Source of the DNA: Spirochaetia bacterium
GTDB taxonomy: Bacteria > Spirochaetota > Spirochaetia > SP-2023
Length of the DNA stretch: 64,000 nt
Reading direction: 5' to 3'
NCBI GenBank assembly: GCA_965225855.1
Contig: CBDDCK010000005.1
Coordinates: 672,001 to 736,000 of the forward strand
In this document: positions 1-9,691 of the stretch, in pieces
Layout: every line of letters begins with the position of its first letter
Numbering within the stretch: position 1 is the first letter of the stretch
The notes under the pieces: generated by a model
Databases searched by the model: none
What the model was told of the DNA's origin: nothing
The model's input: the letters and a program-made list of their open reading frames with translations, nothing else
Program-made: the position numbers and the translations under genes

Positions 1-14
1 ATCTACACCAGTAG

Positions 15-3000
15 GTTGCAGTTGCATACCTTTTTTCATTTCGGTTTAATGCGAGAGCCAGCACGGGCGTTACGCTCAAGGTTGCAGTTGCATACCTTTT
101 TTCATTTCGGTTTAATTACCCCAACAGCGAGTATGAAGTTTCTGCGGTTGCAGTTGCATACCTTTTTTCATTTCGGTTTAATCTAAAGACTCTAGCTCTT
201 TCTCCTTTTGCAGTTGCAGTTGCATACCTTTTTTCATTTCGGTTTAATTACTCTTTAAGTAGATCGTTATCTATACCAGTTGCAGTTGCATACCTTTTTT
301 CATTTCGGTTTAATTGTAACAACCCCCGAATGTAGGCTTGGATAGTTGCAGTTGCATACCTTTTTTCATTTCGGTTTAATAAAAGTATCGCCCAAAACAG
401 GAGCAGTCACGTTGCAGTTGCATACCTTTTTTCATTTCGGTTTAATTGGCCGGTCAAAAGGTCAGTCTCAGCCTCAGTTGCAGTTGCATACCTTTTTTCA
501 TTTCGGTTTAATTAGCAAAGCTAAAGGTAATTGGCAAGGTGGGTTGCAGTTGCATACCTTTTTTCATTTCGGTTTAATAAATCCAGAAACTAGCAGGCCT
601 TTTAGTTGGTTGCAGTTGCATACCTTTTTTCATTTCGGTTTAATTCAAGGGCCATCGTAATGCGACGAATGCGGGTTGCAGTTGCATACCTTTTTTCATT
701 TCGGTTTAATATAATTACAAAAACCCCAATACAGAAGCAGGTTGCAGTTGCATACCTTTTTTCATTTCGGTTTAATTTGAGCACGGAGAAATTAGAAGAT
801 ACAAAGGTTGCAGTTGCATACCTTTTTTCATTTCGGTTTAATTCACTCCTTACCTTAAGCAATCCTTGATTGGTTGCAGTTGCATACCTTTTTTCATTTC
901 GGTTTAATAGCCACGTTATCATGGATCGCATAAAGTTTGTTGCAGTTGCATACCTTTTTTCATTTCGGTTTAATAAGGCTGCATGCGTATAACAAGATTG
1001 CACCGTTGCAGTTGCATACCTTTTTTCATTTCGGTTTAATCTTGTTAAGCTTTTTAAGCCTATTATAAGTGTTGCAGTTGCATACCTTTTTTCATTTCGG
1101 TTTAATTCTGTATTTCAGCAATACTAGGTTTCTATTGTTGCAGTTGCATACCTTTTTTCATTTCGGTTTAATATACCTGTGATGCCGTCTGTACATTAAA
1201 ACGTTGCAGTTGCATACCTTTTTTCATTTCGGTTTAATATATAAAAAAGCATCAATAGATTCACCCTCGTTGCAGTTGCATACCTTTTTTCATTTCGGTT
1301 TAATAAATTCCACAAGGTCAAAAATTATTTGCAAGTTGCAGTTGCATACCTTTTTTCATTTCGGTTTAATAAAAAAGAAAAATCCAGAAAGAACAGGACA
1401 GTTGCAGTTGCATACCTTTTTTCATTTCGGTTTAATTACAATTATTGGCAATAATAGAGATATGCTGTTGCAGTTGCATACCTTTTTTCATTTCGGTTTA
1501 ATCAAGGCTAGCGACTTCTGCAGCCAATTTGTGTTGCAGTTGCATACCTTTTTTCATTTCGGTTTAATTTGTTAGCACTTCTGCCGCTTCTGGTATTGGT
1601 TGCAGTTGCATACCTTTTTTCATTTCGGTTTAATTATTATAGGTAGATTTGCGCAAAGAGTCAAGTTGCAGTTGCATACCTTTTTTCATTTCGGTTTAAT
1701 TGTGAAAAATAGCTCCTACATTTTTTTTCTGTTGCAGTTGCATACCTTTTTTCATTTCGGTTTAATTCATGCATAAGACGAAGACCCCACTCGAAAGTTG
1801 CAGTTGCATACCTTTTTTCATTTCGGTTTAATCAACCTTCTGAGATTGACCGGTCAACAGATGTTGCAGTTGCATACCTTTTTTCATTTCGGTTTAATTA
1901 ATATAGCAATCCATTGCTAATATTTCTAGTTGCAGTTGCATACCTTTTTTCATTTCGGTTTAATTCCACATCGGGAGATTAAATCATGCAGATAGTTGCA
2001 GTTGCATACCTTTTTTCATTTCGGTTTAATAACGGTGCTTGTAACAACCTTCTTGGCGACGTTGCAGTTGCATACCTTTTTTCATTTCGGTTTAATTTGG
2101 CTATATATAAGTAGGTTTTGGGCACTGTTGCAGTTGCATACCTTTTTTCATTTCGGTTTAATAAAAGTATCGCCTAATACAGGAGCAGTCACGTTGCAGT
2201 TGCATACCTTTTTTCATTTCGGTTTAATTTGTTTAGTTTTTCAGTCTTCACTATTATAGTTGCAGTTGCATACCTTTTTTCATTTCGGTTTAATGAAAAG
2301 GCCACCAAAACCTTCACGTGTCAAGTTGCAGTTGCATACCTTTTTTCATTTCGGTTTAATAGAAATATACAGTGGAATCAAAAGAATTAGGTTGCAGTTG
2401 CATACCTTTTTTCATTTCGGTTTAATTTCGGCCTTACGAACCTTGTCAACCTGAGCGTTGCAGTTGCATACCTTTTTTCATTTCGGTTTAATCATATTAA
2501 GGTCGCCGTACTCACCACAACAGTTGCAGTTGCATACCTTTTTTCATTTCGGTTTAATTTTTTTGTATTGGTCGATTATCTTGGTACTGTTGCAGTTGCA
2601 TACCTTTTTTCATTTCGGTTTAATTATCCTGAGATCGTTGACCGTTATCATTGTGTTGCAGTTGCATACCTTTTTTCATTTCGGTTTAATCGTTTAGTGG
2701 CAAGATCAACATCTAAACCAGTTGCAGTTGCATACCTTTTTTCATTTCGGTTTAATACATTCCGCACACGGTCATAGTCAACCTGTGTTGCAGTTGCATA
2801 CCTTTTTTCATTTCGGTTTAATCATAGGCTTGTTTTTGTTCATAGCTTAGTTGTTGCAGTTGCATACCTTTTTTCATTTCGGTTTAATTACCATCGTTGT
2901 CACCTAAAGTAGAAACATGTTGCAGTTGCATACCTTTTTTCATTTCGGTTTAATTCAATTGTGTTTTTTTGCTTGTCAAAGGCTGTTGCAGTTGCATACC

Positions 3001-3944
3001 TTTTTTCATTTCGGTTTAATCAAAGAGTCAAGCGTTTTTTGATGATTTTCGTTGCAGTTGCATACCTTTTTTCATTTCGGTTTAATAGATTTCTGGTATT
3101 CAAAAACATTCTTTCTGTTGCAGTTGCATACCTTTTTTCATTTCGGTTTAATTTAGGATCAGAAGCAATAATGCGCCTAGCAGTTGCAGTTGCATACCTT
3201 TTTTCATTTCGGTTTAATATAGGCTGAAACCGTATAACAAGATTTGCAGTTGCAGTTGCATACCTTTTTTCATTTCGGTTTAATAAAAATCAAAGCTTAT
3301 TCAGCTTCTTTAACGTTGCAGTTGCATACCTTTTTTCATTTCGGTTTAATAGCCACATTGTCGTGGATCGCATATAGTTTGTTGCAGTTGCATACCTTTT
3401 TTCATTTCGGTTTAATAGCGCTAGTGCCGTCACGGCCACCAGTAATGTTGCAGTTGCATACCTTTTTTCATTTCGGTTTAATAATTGCCACAATCCATAA
3501 ACTGGCAAACAAGTTGCAGTTGCATACCTTTTTTCATTTCGGTTTAATATGCTGATGATCTCAATAAGTTTTTGTCCTGTTGCAGTTGCATACCTTTTTT
3601 CATTTCGGTTTAATAATTGCCACAATCCATAAACTGGCAAACAAGTTGCAGTTGCATACCTTTTTTCATTTCGGTTTAATTTTTTGCTATATAAGGTAGG
3701 TTTTGACACTGTTGCAGTTGCATACCTTTTTTCATTTCGGTTTAATGACCACTGCCAACGAATCGGCAGCAATTTGGTTGCAGTTGCATACCTTTTTTCA
3801 TTTCGGTTTAATAATCTAATCTACAACAGTAGAAATTTGAAGGTTGCAGTTGCATACCTTTTTTCATTTCGGTTTAATACCTTCTCACGAGACCTCTTCG
3901 TCTCTCTTGTTGCAGTTGCATACCTTTTTTCATTTCGGTTTAAT
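15..3944 (+). CRISPR. Type II-C CRISPR array: 60 copies of a 36-bp repeat GTTGCAGTTGCATACCTTTTTTCATTTCGGTTTAAT, 59 complete 30-bp spacers; truncated at window start
   Basis: Exact 66-bp period from 15 to 3909. Orientation (+) deduced from the + strand tracrRNA, whose anti-repeat is complementary to the + strand repeat. Confidence 0.99.
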
Positions 3945-4010: not shown

Positions 4011-4240
4011 TCAACACAGTAAAAGGGCTTGTTCTCTGGCACTTTTTTTGCTGTTATCGCGTTTGTGCTGGCTGTAGCTGCTGATGTTCGCATATTGTAT
4101 ATCCGTTATCGTTATTATATCTACCTGTCCCCCCTTCGGGGGGAGAGAGTTTTTGATTCACTCTAATAATCGCTTGCGTTGTTTATTGCCGCCAGCAAAT
4201 TTATAGTATACAGAATATTGGGCCATAGTAAAGTCTTGTT
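4011..4240 (-). pseudogene. cas2: Truncated, diverged cas2 copy (3' two-thirds) with an in-frame TGA
   Basis: Translates EQDFTMAQYSVYYKFAGGNKQRKRLLE*IKNSLPPKGGQVDIITITDIQYANISSYSQHKRDNSKKSAREQALLLC; aligns to intact cas2 about 600 bp away; stop at 4158-4160. Confidence 0.9.
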
Positions 4241-4340
4241 CCGCCTTGCTATAATATATCTCTCCGCCTTGGATCAAGGCCTTGTTCCACCTTGCTATAA
4301 TATATCTTTCCGCCTTGGATCAAGGCCTTGATCCAAGGCG
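4235..4340. repeat. Two tandem 46-bp units followed by a partial third, forming a perfect 30-bp palindrome (4311-4340)
   Basis: Units 4235-4280 and 4281-4326 each contain TGCTATAAT; CGCCTTGGATCAAGGCCTTGATCCAAGGCG is self-complementary. Confidence 0.9.
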
Positions 4341-4512: not shown

Positions 4513-4549
4513 AAATAGCTTGCATACCTTTTCTTCATTTCACTTTAAT
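4513..4549 (+). repeat. Orphan degenerate CRISPR repeat
   Basis: TTGCATACCTTTTCTTCATTTCACTTTAAT matches the 3' ~29 nt of the repeat with a few changes; followed by a copy of the array flank. Confidence 0.85.
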
Positions 4550-4613: not shown

Positions 4614-4949
4614 TCAAAACAGTAAAAGCGGTTGTTCTCTGGCACTTTTTTTGCTGTTATCGCGTTTGTGCTGGCTGTAGCTGATGATATTGGCATATTG
4701 TATATCCGTGATTGTAATTATATCTACTTGCCCCTTCTGGGGTAGGGCACTTTTGATTAACTCTAGTAGTCGCTTGCGCTGCTCGCTTCCGCCAGCAAAT
4801 TTATAGTATACAGAGTATTGGGCCATAGTAAAGCCTTGCTCTAATAGAAACTGGCGAAAGCGCGTGGCTTCTTTGCGTTCTTGTTGTTCCACTACTGGTA
4901 GGTCAAACATTAGATATAGCCACATCACTTTGTAAGGGTTAAGGCGCAT
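4614..4949 (-). CDS. cas2: CRISPR-associated endoribonuclease Cas2
   Basis: MWLYLMFDLPV..FRQFLLEQGFTMAQYSVY motif; downstream of cas1. Confidence 0.97.
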   Translation of the reverse strand: MRLNPYKVMWLYLMFDLPVVEQQERKEATRFRQFLLEQGFTMAQYSVYYKFAGGSEQRKRLLELIKSALPQKGQVDIITITDIQYANIISYSQHKRDNSKKSAREQPLLLF

Positions 4950-5905
4950 AGTTCTACTACATCAATAGCGGTTTGCTCATCTAAGGTGATTGGCTCTAGC
5001 TTTTGTTGCTTGCCCTCTAACACCATGCAAAAGTTTTGCACATAGCGCAGCTCTTGGCGCATTAGGTAGCTTTGTTCGTTGCTGTAATCTAGTTCTTGGC
5101 GTAGTAACTGACTAAGCGCTCGCTTACTTTCGCTATTCAGTTCACGATAACCCCAATGGTAGTATAGGTGGGTAACAAAGGCGTCTACCAACGGGCGTAG
5201 GGTTTCCATAAGGTCGCTAGCTAGGCAATAGGGGTTTTGGCTGTTGCAGTGCTGTATGCCAAACGCCCCCAGTAAACCGCAGCAATTGATGGCTCGTATC
5301 ACACAACCCAGCAAAATGGTATAGCCGTAGTTGAGTAAGCCATTGGGCGGCATTGGCCCCAAACGGCGGAAGTCATCGCCAAATAGCATAGGCCAATAGC
5401 GTTGGGCAGCTGTAGCTTCTAGCATCGTGCTGTCCCCGCTTTGTACCTTTTCGGCCATCGCCAGCAGTTCATTGGCTAAGGCTTGTTCTTCATTTGCTTC
5501 TAGGCAGTGGCGATTGTCCCAACCGAAGCTGGCAGCCATTTGCAATAGCCAGGCTTGGTTGCGTATTTTGTTTTGTACCACCCCTTGCCAGAGCCGTTTC
5601 TTTTTGGGCAACTTGGCCTCTACTTGTAGCCGTACCCGTTGTTGCAAACGGCTATGGCCGTCTAATGGCAGCATGGCTACCGAAGGTAAGTAGTCCGCAC
5701 CGCACAATAGCACAGGGATATTGCGCTTAGCCAATTGGTTTAGCAACGGTGTACTGACTGTGGATTGCGGACTATTCAGCAATAGCACGCCAATACGCTC
5801 TAGGTCTACAAGGTGCTTTTGGCCATTGCGCAGTAGTTCCAGATGGCCCCGCTTTTGGTGTAGGTAGCAGCCGCTGCTTTCTACTTCTATTACTTGTTCG
5901 TACAC
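4925..5905 (-). CDS. cas1: Type II CRISPR-associated endonuclease Cas1
   Basis: EATAAQRYW, NGLLNYGYTIL, GIQH..NPYCLASDLME motifs. Confidence 0.97.
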   Translation of the reverse strand: MYEQVIEVESSGCYLHQKRGHLELLRNGQKHLVDLERIGVLLLNSPQSTVSTPLLNQLAKRNIPVLLCGADYLPSVAMLPLDGHSRLQQRVRLQVEAKLPKKKRLWQGVVQNKIRNQAWLLQMAASFGWDNRHCLEANEEQALANELLAMAEKVQSGDSTMLEATAAQRYWPMLFGDDFRRLGPMPPNGLLNYGYTILLGCVIRAINCCGLLGAFGIQHCNSQNPYCLASDLMETLRPLVDAFVTHLYYHWGYRELNSESKRALSQLLRQELDYSNEQSYLMRQELRYVQNFCMVLEGKQQKLEPITLDEQTAIDVVELCALTLTK

Positions 5906-5914
5906 AGAGGCCTA

Positions 5915-8900
5915 CTACCTATGGCGAACCCAGCCGCCGGGGCTAATGTATACCGCTTGGCATTGCATCTCGTCTCCAAAGATTTTGCTGATCACTTTGT
6001 ATTTCTGGGGGCTATTGGCTTCAATTAGGGGCCGTATATCTAATTTATCGTTTGTAGCGGAATATCCTTTCACCAAGTAGTATTGGCCATCGGCCTTACT
6101 GTACAAAGTGTCATTCTTATAAAGCCTAGTAAGGTGTTCGGCAGAATCTGGTGCTGTTTGCTCCTGCTTGCGTTGGGCTTGGTAGTAGCTAGTGAAGGTT
6201 ACTTTGTATTCTGCCTTACTACCGTTTACAGTGCGCCATATATCGCAGTAAGCATAGCCATCGGGCATGTAGTATTGTGGGCTGCTGGTTTTTGGCTGTA
6301 CTAGGGTTTGGTCTTTGGGTATGTAGCGTACCTTCTTGATGCCATGCTTTGCCCCATAGTCTTTGATGAAACTTTCCCAAGAGAGCTTCTTATCACCATC
6401 ACTTTGTTGCGCTTGGTAGGCCTCTTTTAGCCTTGTGCGCAGGCCATCATCAACTGGGCCTTGATAGCCTTGTTCCAGTGGCTCACAGTCTTTCTCTGTT
6501 ATCCCGCTTAGTAGCTTGCTGTTGACAAAGTAGCCATGCCAATAACGCAGGCCTATCTTGGGGTGTTCTAGCGCAAAGGCTTTGTGGCCTTCGTTCCATA
6601 ATTTTCCCAATGGTCCTTTTTGTGTTCTTTGTAGTAGTGCTTGGGTCTCTTGCTCTAGCTGTAGCAACTGGCCCCGTTGGGGTTTTATGGTTGCTGCTAT
6701 CTGGCGTAGTTCGCTTATCGAGCCTTGCAGTTCTTGTTGTTTCTTGCAGTTTGCTTTTGTGTTCTGGGCTTGGGCCGGGTTTGTTTCGGGCCGAGTAGCA
6801 ATATAATCCAGCAGCCAATGGGCTTGCTCTGGCCGTACCAACAATGGTAAGTTTTCACGCAGTGTTTTGCCATCTATAGCGCTAATTGCTTTGTAGATTA
6901 AACCATTCGCCGTTTCTGCAAACATCGCACTGTTATGGCTATGATCCTGTTTGTGGGACACAATGATACTGCTTACCACCGTTTCTATTTGCTGGCGTAA
7001 ACCCTGTCGTTCCCCAGCCATGCGCTGCATGGCATAGCGTTGCCTCCGCTTAGCTGTTTTCAGTTCTTCAGCTTCTTTGCCCAATAACTGGTCTTGACTA
7101 AATGCAAAGTAGCCACTCAAGCGTTTGAGCAAACTGCGGTCAATCATCGCTACCACTATCGCATCTATCGCATGGTGGCGGTGGTCATTGCGGTTTTTCT
7201 TTTTATGTTTGGGGTTCTCGTTGAGCAGACTATTGAGATTCAGGTTGTCCCGCAGCATTTCCGTTATGTGGCCATTGCTAGCCCACACTTGCGGGCAAAT
7301 AGATTGTAGATACTGCATAGCCTTACGGGCAATATAGGCGTTATCGGTAGTTTGCCTAGCCAAGAAGTGGTCATCGCTTTCATACCGTTTCATCGCTTCC
7401 GCTGTAAAGTGTTCTTGCTTGTTCTTAGGTAGGTTTCCGGTAGCTTGTTTGATTCGTTGCCAACGTTCCGCATCGTGGCCAAAAGCCTCGTAAGGGCTAC
7501 GGTCTCCCTTTTGGCGGTTGCAGGCCGTGTGGCTTAGCGTTAGGTTTGCCATACCATTATCTAAGGTACGGCTAAAGGGCAAGATATGCTCTATCTCCAC
7601 TCGGTTGTCGGGGCTAAATAAATCACTCGCAGGGATTTTTACGCCACAGTAAGGGCACTTTGCCGTAGTGTTCTTTAGGGCTAGCTCTTCATATAATTGC
7701 AGCTTGCGGCGGTCGTCCCTGCTGGGGTAGTGAATATTGTAGTTTTCCCGCAATTCTTTGTTCCGCCGCTCGTTTTGCTTTTTGTTCTCATTTTGTAGCT
7801 TGCTGATCTCGGCCTTGGCTTTGCGGCTATTCTTTAGGTCGCGCCCCAATTCAACCACCACCTCATCGGGTAGGCCATAATGGCCTATTATATCATTGAC
7901 TACCTTACGCACTTGGTTTAAGGCCACATGCACGGTTGGGTTGCCAATACGGCCATACTTAGCTTCATCACTGTTTATCTCTAAACCGGGCTTATTCTTT
8001 TGCAGCTTTTTGAGTGGGTAACATGATTCTGGCATTGCAGCACCATAATAGGGTAAAGTCGGCAGCAGCTGGCTCTTCTTCTGTTTATCGACACGCAGTT
8101 TCTGTAAATGGGTTGCACCGCCATCATCGGGGTATTGTTCCAATAAATAGTGTAGTACCTCCCGTTGCAGGCAGGCACTTAGCTCTGTCGTACCTGTCGG
8201 AAGTTCATAGGCAAATAGTGCTTGGCATTGTTGTTCACTTAGCCCCAGTTCTCTAAATGGCTGTAGCAGTTTGTCTTGCTCGTTATCCTTGGCATAGGTA
8301 AACAGCATAACCTTTTCACAAAGGCTATCTTGTTCCTCTAAGTTCAGCTTATGCCAGTGTTCTTTTCCAAAAAACTCGGGCTTTTGCATCTCTACATTGA
8401 CTACAGCACCCTCTAACTCTTCTTTACGGTTCTTTTCTAAGTTAAAGGTAATATTTTCGCTCCAGCCGAACATTTTGCGTATAGCTTTGAAGGTCATGCT
8501 TTTGCAGTTACACAGCTTATTGTAGAGCTGCAAGCGTTCTTGATTGTTTAAACTTATCTGGCTACCATGTTCATCTATCATGCGTAAGTTCAGCACGTTT
8601 TGGGCAATACGCAGCCGTTCACTACTGGGCTGGCTTTTATAGGCTCGGTCTTCATCTTCGTAGTACCAGCATTTGCCCCGTTCTGGTTTCTGTAAAGGCC
8701 GTTGATAAAATAGAATCTGCTCTAGCGTATCCCAATTGATGTTCTCAAAAGCTGGGTACTGGCTTTGCTGCTGCCTAATCGCTCTAAACTCATCGCGATA
8801 CATTTGTCTGTTGGCATAGAAATCGCCTATATCGGCCTGGGTGTTTTGCTCTCCTGCGGCTGTTGTAGCTTTGTCATTGCGGAAGCGTACACTTTGTTTT

Positions 8901-9457
8901 GCCTTTTTGCGTTGGTAGAGCCATGTACCCAAAGTAGCGTCTTGTGCCAAGGTTTGCTCCAACTTACGAATGCGCTGTAAATTGGCGCGCTCTTCCTTCT
9001 CTTTTTCTGTTGCTTTGTCTTCAGTTTTACTTTGTTTCCGATTACTTTGGTAGCCACGCCTCTGGCACAAGTGGAATAAAGCCCGCCCAAGTTCGTAAGG
9101 TTTTAGCTCTTGCTTCACCGCTAAAGAGCGCAATCGGTATGGGTCTTGTTTCATCAAGCTTGTATTTTCTGGGCTGTTGGGTGGTGGCAATAGCCCTTGT
9201 TGTTGTAGTTCTTTGGCAAATTTAGCCACGCGCCGTTTTAACCTACGTAGTCTGCGCCGACTACCTCTAGCCTCACGGCGAGCTACAGCTAACGAAGAAT
9301 CTTTTTCATCTCGACCATCACTAAATATACGCACTCCAGCCGTTTCTAACTGCTTTAGCGTATAAGTCTTTTTGTTTGCTTCTTTAGCATCTAGGCTCCA
9401 AATAGACCAGCCTATAGAATTTGTTCCTAGGTCTAAACCTAAGCGGTAAGGTTTCAT
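5915..9457 (-). CDS. cas9: Type II-C Cas9 (1180 aa), catalytic motifs intact
   Basis: RuvC-I LGLDLGTNSIGW, Arg-rich bridge helix, RuvC-II VELGRD, HNH EIEHILPFS..N..CNRQKG, RuvC-III DHRHHAIDA; no csn2 or cas4 in the operon. Confidence 0.99.
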   Translation of the reverse strand: MKPYRLGLDLGTNSIGWSIWSLDAKEANKKTYTLKQLETAGVRIFSDGRDEKDSSLAVARREARGSRRRLRRLKRRVAKFAKELQQQGLLPPPNSPENTSLMKQDPYRLRSLAVKQELKPYELGRALFHLCQRRGYQSNRKQSKTEDKATEKEKEERANLQRIRKLEQTLAQDATLGTWLYQRKKAKQSVRFRNDKATTAAGEQNTQADIGDFYANRQMYRDEFRAIRQQQSQYPAFENINWDTLEQILFYQRPLQKPERGKCWYYEDEDRAYKSQPSSERLRIAQNVLNLRMIDEHGSQISLNNQERLQLYNKLCNCKSMTFKAIRKMFGWSENITFNLEKNRKEELEGAVVNVEMQKPEFFGKEHWHKLNLEEQDSLCEKVMLFTYAKDNEQDKLLQPFRELGLSEQQCQALFAYELPTGTTELSACLQREVLHYLLEQYPDDGGATHLQKLRVDKQKKSQLLPTLPYYGAAMPESCYPLKKLQKNKPGLEINSDEAKYGRIGNPTVHVALNQVRKVVNDIIGHYGLPDEVVVELGRDLKNSRKAKAEISKLQNENKKQNERRNKELRENYNIHYPSRDDRRKLQLYEELALKNTTAKCPYCGVKIPASDLFSPDNRVEIEHILPFSRTLDNGMANLTLSHTACNRQKGDRSPYEAFGHDAERWQRIKQATGNLPKNKQEHFTAEAMKRYESDDHFLARQTTDNAYIARKAMQYLQSICPQVWASNGHITEMLRDNLNLNSLLNENPKHKKKNRNDHRHHAIDAIVVAMIDRSLLKRLSGYFAFSQDQLLGKEAEELKTAKRRQRYAMQRMAGERQGLRQQIETVVSSIIVSHKQDHSHNSAMFAETANGLIYKAISAIDGKTLRENLPLLVRPEQAHWLLDYIATRPETNPAQAQNTKANCKKQQELQGSISELRQIAATIKPQRGQLLQLEQETQALLQRTQKGPLGKLWNEGHKAFALEHPKIGLRYWHGYFVNSKLLSGITEKDCEPLEQGYQGPVDDGLRTRLKEAYQAQQSDGDKKLSWESFIKDYGAKHGIKKVRYIPKDQTLVQPKTSSPQYYMPDGYAYCDIWRTVNGSKAEYKVTFTSYYQAQRKQEQTAPDSAEHLTRLYKNDTLYSKADGQYYLVKGYSATNDKLDIRPLIEANSPQKYKVISKIFGDEMQCQAVYISPGGWVRHR

Positions 9458-9505: not shown

Positions 9506-9534
9506 TTGTCAAAACATCGTAATTTGTATAGTAT
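9506..9534 (+). promoter_or_regulatory. Putative sigma70 promoter of tracrRNA
   Basis: TTGTCA-17 bp-TAGTAT just upstream of the anti-repeat. Confidence 0.55.
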
Positions 9535-9541
9535 AGCTTCC

Positions 9542-9665
9542 GTTGAACCGAATTGAAAACAGGTATGCTTGGGCTATACGCTTAGCTGCCAACAAGCCTT
9601 GTAAGAGGCGCAAAATTATGGCTTAACTTCAATTAGTTTCCTTTTTGAAGTTAAGCCAGTTTTTT
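9542..9665 (+). ncRNA. tracrRNA
   Basis: Anti-repeat GTTGAACCGAATTGAAAACAGGTATGC plus lower-stem AGCTGCCAAC, nexus AAGCC..GGC, 14-bp terminator stem (9619-9658) and U-tract. Confidence 0.9.
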
Positions 9666-9691
9666 ATTTCTTTTATTGAACATAAAAAATG

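Follow-up and report, generated by a model that had tools for sequence, protein, structure and literature searches.

The type II-C CRISPR systems of Neisseria meningitidis and Campylobacter jejuni consist of a cas9-cas1-cas2 operon without csn2 or cas4, a tracrRNA (trans-activating CRISPR RNA) gene that lies upstream of cas9 and divergent from it, and an array that is read towards the cas genes, with 36-nt repeats of the form GTTG...AAT, 30-nt spacers and a protospacer adjacent motif (PAM) that is read from position 5. The same layout is found in the locus described here, a type II-C array (array 1) that enters from the left a stretch of 64,000 nt of the genome of a Spirochaetia bacterium (G000:C5:672001-736000), which is called the window below. 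The locus differs from the two known systems in having a longer (1180 aa) and distantly related Cas9 (188 bits), a huge array (202 identical repeats) and a cas1 that is the sole one in a genome where another cas9-cas2 locus and a cas12a accompanied by 323 repeats are also present. We found that array 1 holds spacers of Microviridae origin and that most of the CRISPR RNAs (crRNAs) made from these are complementary to the phage coding strand. This antisense orientation is a strong bias in array 1, not a rule.

A natural strand bias of Cas9 spacers has been described for double-stranded DNA (dsDNA) phages whose genes run in one direction. In streptococci, most II-A spacers pair with the template strand, which is attributed to a 2-3:1 PAM skew and to the dislodging of Cas9 by RNA polymerase (Clarke et al. 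2018, bioRxiv 10.1101/300962). For the absolute II-C phage spacers of Flavobacterium columnare, a mRNA-complementary fraction of only ~0.32 is reported, for which PAMs were no explanation (Hoikkala et al. 2021, PMC8092290). In contrast to this template-strand bias, the crRNAs of array 1 mostly pair with the coding strand, a preference that is not accounted for by the density of PAMs. A full-text literature search, with subscription journals outside its coverage, yielded no report of a Cas9 spacer strand bias on Microviridae. Nor did it show a bias of natural spacers, or a role in vivo, for Cas9 cutting of single-stranded DNA (ssDNA) against ssDNA phages.

The original prediction had placed the crRNA of array 1 on the + strand by way of the tracrRNA. 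This is borne out by the anti-repeat, the promoter-like site and the terminator hairpin. The features concerned are the following.

1-3944, + strand: cas-proximal part of array 1, 60 repeats (GTTGCAGTTGCATACCTTTTTTCATTTCGGTTTAAT) with 30-nt spacers
4128-4144, + strand: terminator-like hairpin past the last array 1 repeat, in agreement with + strand transcription of the array
9506-9668, + strand: tracrRNA gene, made up of a promoter-like site, the anti-repeat and a terminator, which is a hairpin with U-run that ends near 9665

The anti-repeat (9546-9568, +) matches the array 1 repeat at 21 of 23 positions. It is preceded by the promoter-like site (9506-9534, +) and followed on its 3' side, again on the + strand, by a 14-bp hairpin with a U-run (-41.4 kcal/mol, z -4.59; 0 of 200 shuffles were as stable). 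More than one terminator-like hairpin is found on the + strand after the last array 1 repeat. Since the promoter-like site, anti-repeat and terminator of the tracrRNA and the hairpins at the array end all lie on the + strand, the crRNA of array 1 is, judged from the sequence, the + strand sequence; among RNA sequencing runs, none that contains the locus was found. By the same test we oriented array 2, the second Cas9 array of this genome (anti-repeat 27/27, promoter-like site and terminator; L115:11246-11410, +), and the array of a distant relative, G094 (tracrRNA with terminator; L207:18640-18735), so that the crRNA strand was checked through a tracrRNA with terminator in three loci. In G094 (L207:12818-12992) the reading direction of the array points away from the cas genes, and the degenerate repeats are those of its upstream end, next to the cas genes. 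Its polarity relative to cas9 is opposite to that of the window locus.

The window holds 60 identical 36-nt repeats of array 1 (15-3944), with 59 complete 30-nt spacers between them, and 9.4 kb of the array extends to the left of the window. The entire array (G000:C5:662644-675944) has 201 spacers, of which 171 are unique because of internal segmental duplications of spacer blocks. One spacer is present five times and another four times, and neither end of the array has a degenerate terminal repeat.

GenBank phages, IMG/VR and JGI metagenomes yielded no phage near-identical to the array 1 spacers, and no known phage genome showed an exact or near-exact protospacer with its PAM. The best nucleotide matches are 26/27 and 27/30; those in GenBank phages are weak, the best of them being 27/30 and 25/26 nt to microvirus capsid genes. 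The spacers were therefore mapped as peptides onto related genomes. As targets we took from IMG/VR the genomes of 129 related microviruses, 4-7 kb in length, each oriented with its capsid gene on the + strand. Unique spacers were translated in six frames and the peptides compared with the open reading frames (ORFs) of the sense strand by blastp-short, with five-fold shuffled spacers as control. Counts are given below as antisense:sense, at thresholds of at least 25, at least 26 and at least 28 bits. The method is strand-neutral: the shuffles are equal in both orientations, and two arrays, that of Cas12a and one of the sibling species G003 (G003-A), show no bias or a lean to sense. Of the 171 unique spacers of array 1, 19 could be mapped at 25 bits or more, compared with ~2.2 for the shuffles.

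Several other routes were tried and given up. A wobble-degenerate pattern for the peptide VTAPVLGDTF hit 0 IMG/VR contigs, and three metagenome contigs that carry it were rejected, as they have 60-67% G+C, are no microviruses and match no spacer. A blastn-short search against the first 21 IMG/VR relatives gave mostly noise. Extension of the flanks through overlapping spacers of the three arrays of the genome yielded five usable 3' flanks, too few for a PAM. In a genome-contig collection, a Cas9-based search for related loci found no relative.

The mapped spacers of array 1 are predominantly antisense, with counts of 16:3, 12:2 and 7:1 at the three thresholds (shuffles 1.0 and 1.2 at 25 bits or more). 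When variants of the same site were collapsed, 13:3 distinct sites remained (p=0.021), and blastn-short gave 5 antisense and 1 sense. The spacers inside the window contribute 7:1, 6:1 and 2:0; the seven antisense ones at 25 bits or more start at 51, 909, 1041, 2493, 3087, 3219 and 3351. It had been claimed that all seven microvirus-like spacers are antisense. This holds in the window, where the single sense call is doubtful, and does not hold for array 1 as a whole, with its 16:3 and a solid sense spacer (S080, see below). The spacers of the window are listed here.

51-80, + strand: S143, antisense; reverse complement LERNARAGSR, a conserved microvirus major capsid motif; 33.3 bits
381-410, + strand: S148, antisense; VTAPVLGDTF in the reverse frame; 21.4 bits as peptide
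909-938, + strand: S156, antisense; KLYAIHDNVA in the reverse frame; 26.1 bits
975-1004, + strand: S157, antisense; LVIRMQP in the reverse frame; 24.8 bits; capsid site shared with 3219-3248
1041-1070, + strand: S158, antisense; NRLKKLNK in the reverse frame; 25.7 bits; variant of S006
1767-1796, + strand: S169, the single and doubtful sense call of the window; SCIRRRPH; 26.5 bits to a non-capsid ORF
2163-2192, + strand: S175, antisense; synonymous variant of S148 (381-410)
2493-2522, + strand: S180, antisense; CGEYGDLN in the reverse frame; 29.9 bits; site shared with S018
3087-3116, + strand: S189, antisense; KNVFEYQK in the reverse frame; 26.5 bits
3219-3248, + strand: S191, antisense; LVIRFQP in the reverse frame; 26.5 bits
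3351-3380, + strand: S193, antisense; synonymous variant of S156 (909-938); 26.1 bits
3417-3446, + strand: S194, weakly antisense; ITGGRDGTS in the reverse frame; 24.4 bits, near noise

At the nucleotide level, S143 matches GenBank microviruses at 27/30 nt, antisense to the annotated capsid coding sequence (CDS), and S148 matches the annotated capsid CDS of MW202567 in antisense at 24/25 nt. The window spacers at 183 and 2823 are also antisense by blastn-short. Nine further spacers had been read as open frames on the reverse strand. Among these, 3417 (24.4 bits) agrees with that reading, 2427 is antisense at noise level (23.1 bits) and 2691 is frame-ambiguous; 645, 2031, 2295, 2757, 2889 and 3153 gave nothing in the mapping. 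Pairs of variant spacers point in the same direction, as their synonymous differences favour reverse frames in five pairs. S148 and S175 differ by 2 nt without an aa difference in frame R0, S156 and S193 by 4 nt without one in the reverse frame, and S007 and S133 by 6 nt, again without an aa change in the reverse frame. This analysis was used as support only, as two frames that share wobble positions are inseparable. The three-base periodicity of A versus T over all 171 unique spacers of array 1 showed no clear excess (25 vs 18 at 7/10 or more); the test was dropped as uninformative because most array 1 spacers are not from microviruses.

Two more arrays of the same genome could be compared. 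The array 2 locus (L115:7118-11186) has a second cas9 (1242 aa) and cas2 without cas1, 58 exact repeats and 53 unique spacers. The Cas12a locus (L116:3567-8273) has a cas12a of 1568 aa and a 20-kb array of 323 repeats, and no cas1, cas2 or cas4 was found near cas12a. The cas1 of the window (4925-5905) is the sole one detected in this 94%-complete genome, so that one Cas1 integrase apparently feeds two Cas9 arrays and the 323-repeat Cas12a array, with three different PAMs. Array 2 is antisense throughout (4:0, 3:0 and 3:0, with shuffles at 1.2 or fewer per orientation at 25 bits or more), and its nucleotide matches, 24-26 nt long, agree with 3:0. No bias is seen in the Cas12a array (285 unique spacers), with 4:4 at 25 bits or more and 5 antisense and 3 sense by nucleotide matches. 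One capsid site is targeted in antisense from array 2 (AYNFIYNEY) and in sense from the Cas12a array (AYNLIYNEY).

Array 2 is adjoined by an IS1595-family transposase gene and a N6/N4 DNA methylase gene (L115:704-3305). Single orphan copies of its repeat are found at C5:896071 and C5:1152785.

We then looked at other genomes of the class. Among 401 genomes, 42 had a Cas9 match at E<=1e-30, G000 and the sibling species G003 included. From the 40 other loci 32 were taken, and eight with short or weak matches were left out; TRF found arrays in 22. We oriented 18 of these by their homologous GTT...AAT/ACT repeat (565 unique spacers) and excluded four, one of which contained N. The 18 II-C arrays gave 28:7 at 25 bits or more (shuffles 6.0 and 6.3), 21:6 at 26 or more (shuffles 2.7 and 2.7) and 13:2 at 28 or more (shuffles 0 and 0). 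Six loci have matches at 26 bits or more (3:0, 2:0, 1:0, 8:2, 6:3 and 1:1), and none of them leans to sense. For all Cas9 arrays without array 1 the count at 28 bits or more is 22:7 (p=0.008), and with array 1 it is 29:8 (p=0.00075). A second type II array of G003 gave 4:0. The bias is real. It recurs, it is confined to Cas9 arrays, and its direction is the reverse of that on dsDNA phages; in view of an orthologous array of G003 and of the sense spacers, both described below, it is a tendency. The genome of G003 also has a CRISPR-like array of another type (L178:14564-15908), with a 37-nt repeat and ~35-nt spacers, near a weak Cas9-like match.

In the Microviridae the coding strand is the packaged strand, and it is both the infecting and the progeny single strand. 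The explanation that we prefer, and hold tentatively, is that the + strand crRNAs of array 1 against microviruses are mostly complementary to this packaged (+) coding strand because the bias is kept by selection at the interference step. Both strands of the replicative form, which is double-stranded, would probably give rise to spacers wherever the PAM allows. With guides that also pair with the (+) ssDNA of infecting and progeny phage, Cas9 could cut this ssDNA, for which no PAM would be needed, and hosts with such guides would survive better and retain antisense spacers longer. PAM-independent cutting of ssDNA in vitro is reported for type II-C Cas9s by Ma et al. and by Zhang et al. in 2015, and the Cas9 of Neisseria meningitidis reportedly has this activity in vitro. 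Such an activity would supply what the proposed selection needs; that the cutting takes place in the cell, and that it brings a selective advantage, is what we infer.

For Cas12a, another class 2 effector, the role of ssDNA activity in immunity has been addressed by experiment. No ssDNA targeting in cells is reported for LbCas12a, which was tested on M13 (Marino et al. 2022, PMC9226536). The unbiased Cas12a array of the present genome agrees with that negative result, which concerns a different effector from ours. Collateral ssDNA cutting by Cas12a was considered as a cause of the unbiased array and dropped, as the same source describes no detectable role for it in cells (PMC9226536).

Several observations weigh against selection of ssDNA-pairing guides. 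The orthologous array of G003 (L174:7529-12242; 72 spacers; Cas9 49% identical) has 4:8 at 25 bits or more, and it differs from array 1 (Fisher p=0.007), although the PAM inferred for it, with C at position 6, is similar. Within array 1, S080 (RSVFDLSH) is a solid sense spacer, which matches the coding strand of a capsid gene annotated in GenBank at 25/26 nt. Two further spacers, S065 and S064, share sequence on the opposite strand with S092 and with the spacer at window position 2031. As it overlaps an antisense spacer in this way, S065 is probably directed at that capsid site in the sense orientation, and both S065 and S064 are probably real sense spacers. The sense spacers of array 1 (S064, S065, S080 and, with doubt, S041) cluster at positions 41-80 of the 201, to the left of the window, which suggests an episode or a phage lineage of different behaviour. 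The contrast between array 1 and the Cas12a array rests on eight Cas12a spacers (Fisher p=0.053), and the 19 mappable spacers of array 1 represent nearly exclusively conserved capsid motifs. The PAMs used below come from diverged relatives and a longer, skewed PAM is possible, so the argument from PAMs is good, not final. Finally, we know of no Cas9 for which in vivo targeting of ssDNA has been described.

Among the alternatives, a skew of PAMs or of base composition survives best. PAMs would be commoner on the strand complementary to a lopsided coding strand, and spacers would follow their availability. The coding strands on which the mapped protospacers lie are indeed rich in T and poor in C (T 0.335, A 0.251, G 0.242, C 0.173), and a PAM skew of 2:1 to 3:1 is reported for streptococcal phages (10.1101/300962). 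PAMs were inferred here from the flanks of mapped sites in relatives, which are not the true protospacers, and may be incomplete. For the window Cas9 this gave a T at position 5 (0.60; C 0.04), for the array 2 Cas9 GG at positions 6-7 (0.75 and 0.84), and for the Cas9 arrays of relatives either a T or a C at position 5 or else a C at position 6. The Cas12a array served as a positive control and gave TTT at -4 to -2 (0.40, 0.51, 0.45), which means that TTTV was recovered. On the 129 genomes, the predicted antisense fraction is 0.54 for N4T (0.46 in T-rich genomes) and 0.41 for N5GG (0.38 in T-rich genomes); N4C or N5C gives 0.53 (0.57 in T-rich genomes), a modest antisense excess.

The original prediction had named spacer orientation against PAM density per strand as the check on such a skew. 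Run on these 129 relatives with the four inferred PAMs (T5, C5, C6 and GG6-7), it predicts 38-57% antisense, compared with roughly 0.76-0.87 observed, and therefore a skew of PAMs is by itself no sufficient explanation. For array 1 the 16 antisense among 19 exceed the expected 0.54 (p=0.006). A GG PAM predicts a sense bias, yet array 2 is antisense in all four cases; the orthologous G003 array leans the opposite way with a similar PAM; and the Cas12a array roughly tracks the density of its own PAM. We therefore consider PAM or composition skew unlikely as the cause.

Six spacers of array 1 have exact 30/30 self-matches in the genome (window 315-344 and 1305-1334; S003, S023, S126 and S129). 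The target of S129 is a repeated element: the 30 nt are present exactly at eight places, and there are many near-identical copies on all five contigs. A T at position 5 is missing from all six self-target sites, and for this reason they were rejected as a source for the PAM. It may be, and is the more likely reading, that these self-targets are tolerated because the PAM is missing.

The next alternative is an asymmetry of acquisition, in which Cas9 would choose prespacers strand-specifically on rolling-circle intermediates, before any selection. Such a Cas9-dependent step would fit a bias that is present in the Cas9 arrays and absent from the Cas12a array when the integrase is common to both, and type II Cas9 is described as selecting PAM-flanked prespacers (PMC12477760). 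However, there is no known mechanism by which Cas9 would read PAMs strand-specifically, PAM-bearing (+) ssDNA as a source would give sense spacers, and the orthologous G003 array lacks the antisense bias. Because cas1 is common to the three arrays and the Cas12a array is unbiased, a bias in the supply of prespacers is also unlikely. We place asymmetric acquisition after PAM skew and regard it as rather improbable.

Guides could also act at the RNA level or as roadblocks, by binding or cutting phage mRNA or by letting Cas9 block RNA polymerase and the rolling-circle replisome. The observed orientation does pair with mRNA and with the non-template strand, and RNA targeting by some Cas9s is reported (Strutt 2018). 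The same effects would, however, be expected on dsDNA phages, where the template strand is the one favoured by spacers of both II-A and II-C, and a test of 61 guides on lambda gave no consistent strand effect (PMC12455587). As the Cas9 spacers against dsDNA phages lean the other way, it is the single-stranded phage strand, and not transcription, that is special to microviruses. An RNA-level or roadblock effect as the main cause thus appears quite improbable to us. A sampling accident, in which the mappable spacers are few, related ones were taken up in bursts and the genomes are not independent, is the least probable explanation: array 1 has 19 mapped spacers, several of them variants of one site, one orthologous array is reversed and two of the match-richest survey arrays come from one genus, but the survey loci at 26 bits or more include no sense-leaning one (one is 1:1), the lean recurs in the unrelated array 2 and in the second array of G003, and the pooled count is 22:7 at 28 bits or more even when array 1 is left out.

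The original prediction had left the choice between selection of guides that pair with ssDNA or mRNA and a skew of acquisition or PAMs. The comparisons lean to guides that pair with ssDNA; PAM skew and prespacer supply fit poorly, and mRNA is disfavoured as the main target. A wider form of the selection hypothesis would be that II-C Cas9 fights microviruses mainly by destroying the (+) genome, with PAM-independent, 'DNase H-like' cutting as a real immunity that leaves a 3-4:1 antisense footprint across the class. We see this as possible, with less confidence than in the selection hypothesis for array 1 itself.

If reproducible, an antisense footprint in II-C arrays against ssDNA phages would be a first genomic hint of a natural role for ssDNA cutting by Cas9. 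What is at issue is the natural relevance of ssDNA (and RNA) cutting by Cas9, a question that for Cas12a has received a negative answer in cells. The bias makes the role of ssDNA cutting directly testable. It would also affect the prediction of hosts of ssDNA phages from spacer-protospacer matches and the inference of PAMs from such data, and would bear on the application of compact II-C Cas9s to ssDNA targets.

Three spacers of array 1 resemble the Cas12a repeat: S200 (window 3813-3842), S142 (its tail at window 1-14) and S066 (S066/S067, C5 ~666965-667095). S200 matches the V-A repeats of the genome itself at 19/19 nt, and not a phage, and S142 matches S200 at 14/15. S066 matches the Cas12a repeat at up to 25/27, in the orientation opposite to S200. 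These spacers look like they were taken from a foreign Cas12a array, and one CRISPR system may here target the repeats of another.

The remaining genes of the locus are these.

4614-4949, - strand: cas2 (Pfam PF09827 and TIGR01573)
4925-5905, - strand: cas1 of the type II (NMENI) kind (TIGR03639 cas1_NMENI, 239 bits)
5915-9457, - strand: cas9, 1180 aa, with HNH and RuvC domains (TIGR01865 533.5 bits, cut-off 100; Pfam HNH_4, RuvC_III)

The ORF list of 4614-9457 contains cas9, cas1 and cas2 only, and csn2 (II-A) and cas4 (II-B) are absent from the operon, which therefore has a type II-C layout. Between array 1 and the ABC-transporter genes no other ORF of at least 80 aa with a Cas family was found. 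The closest solved chains to the window Cas9 are Cas9s of 1082-1092 aa (8ja0, 6kc8, 6jdq and 6jdv), which we take to be those of Neisseria meningitidis; the best match has 188 bits and covers the nuclease core.

Three minor features are found near the end of the array. A cas2-like fragment with an internal TGA (window 4086-4244) has 29 bits to PF09827, a 46-bp tandem repeat (4235-4335) lies between array 1 and cas2, and a degenerate partial repeat (4520-4541) matches at 21/22 positions with one gap. They look like what is left of a rearrangement, or of an earlier end of the locus.

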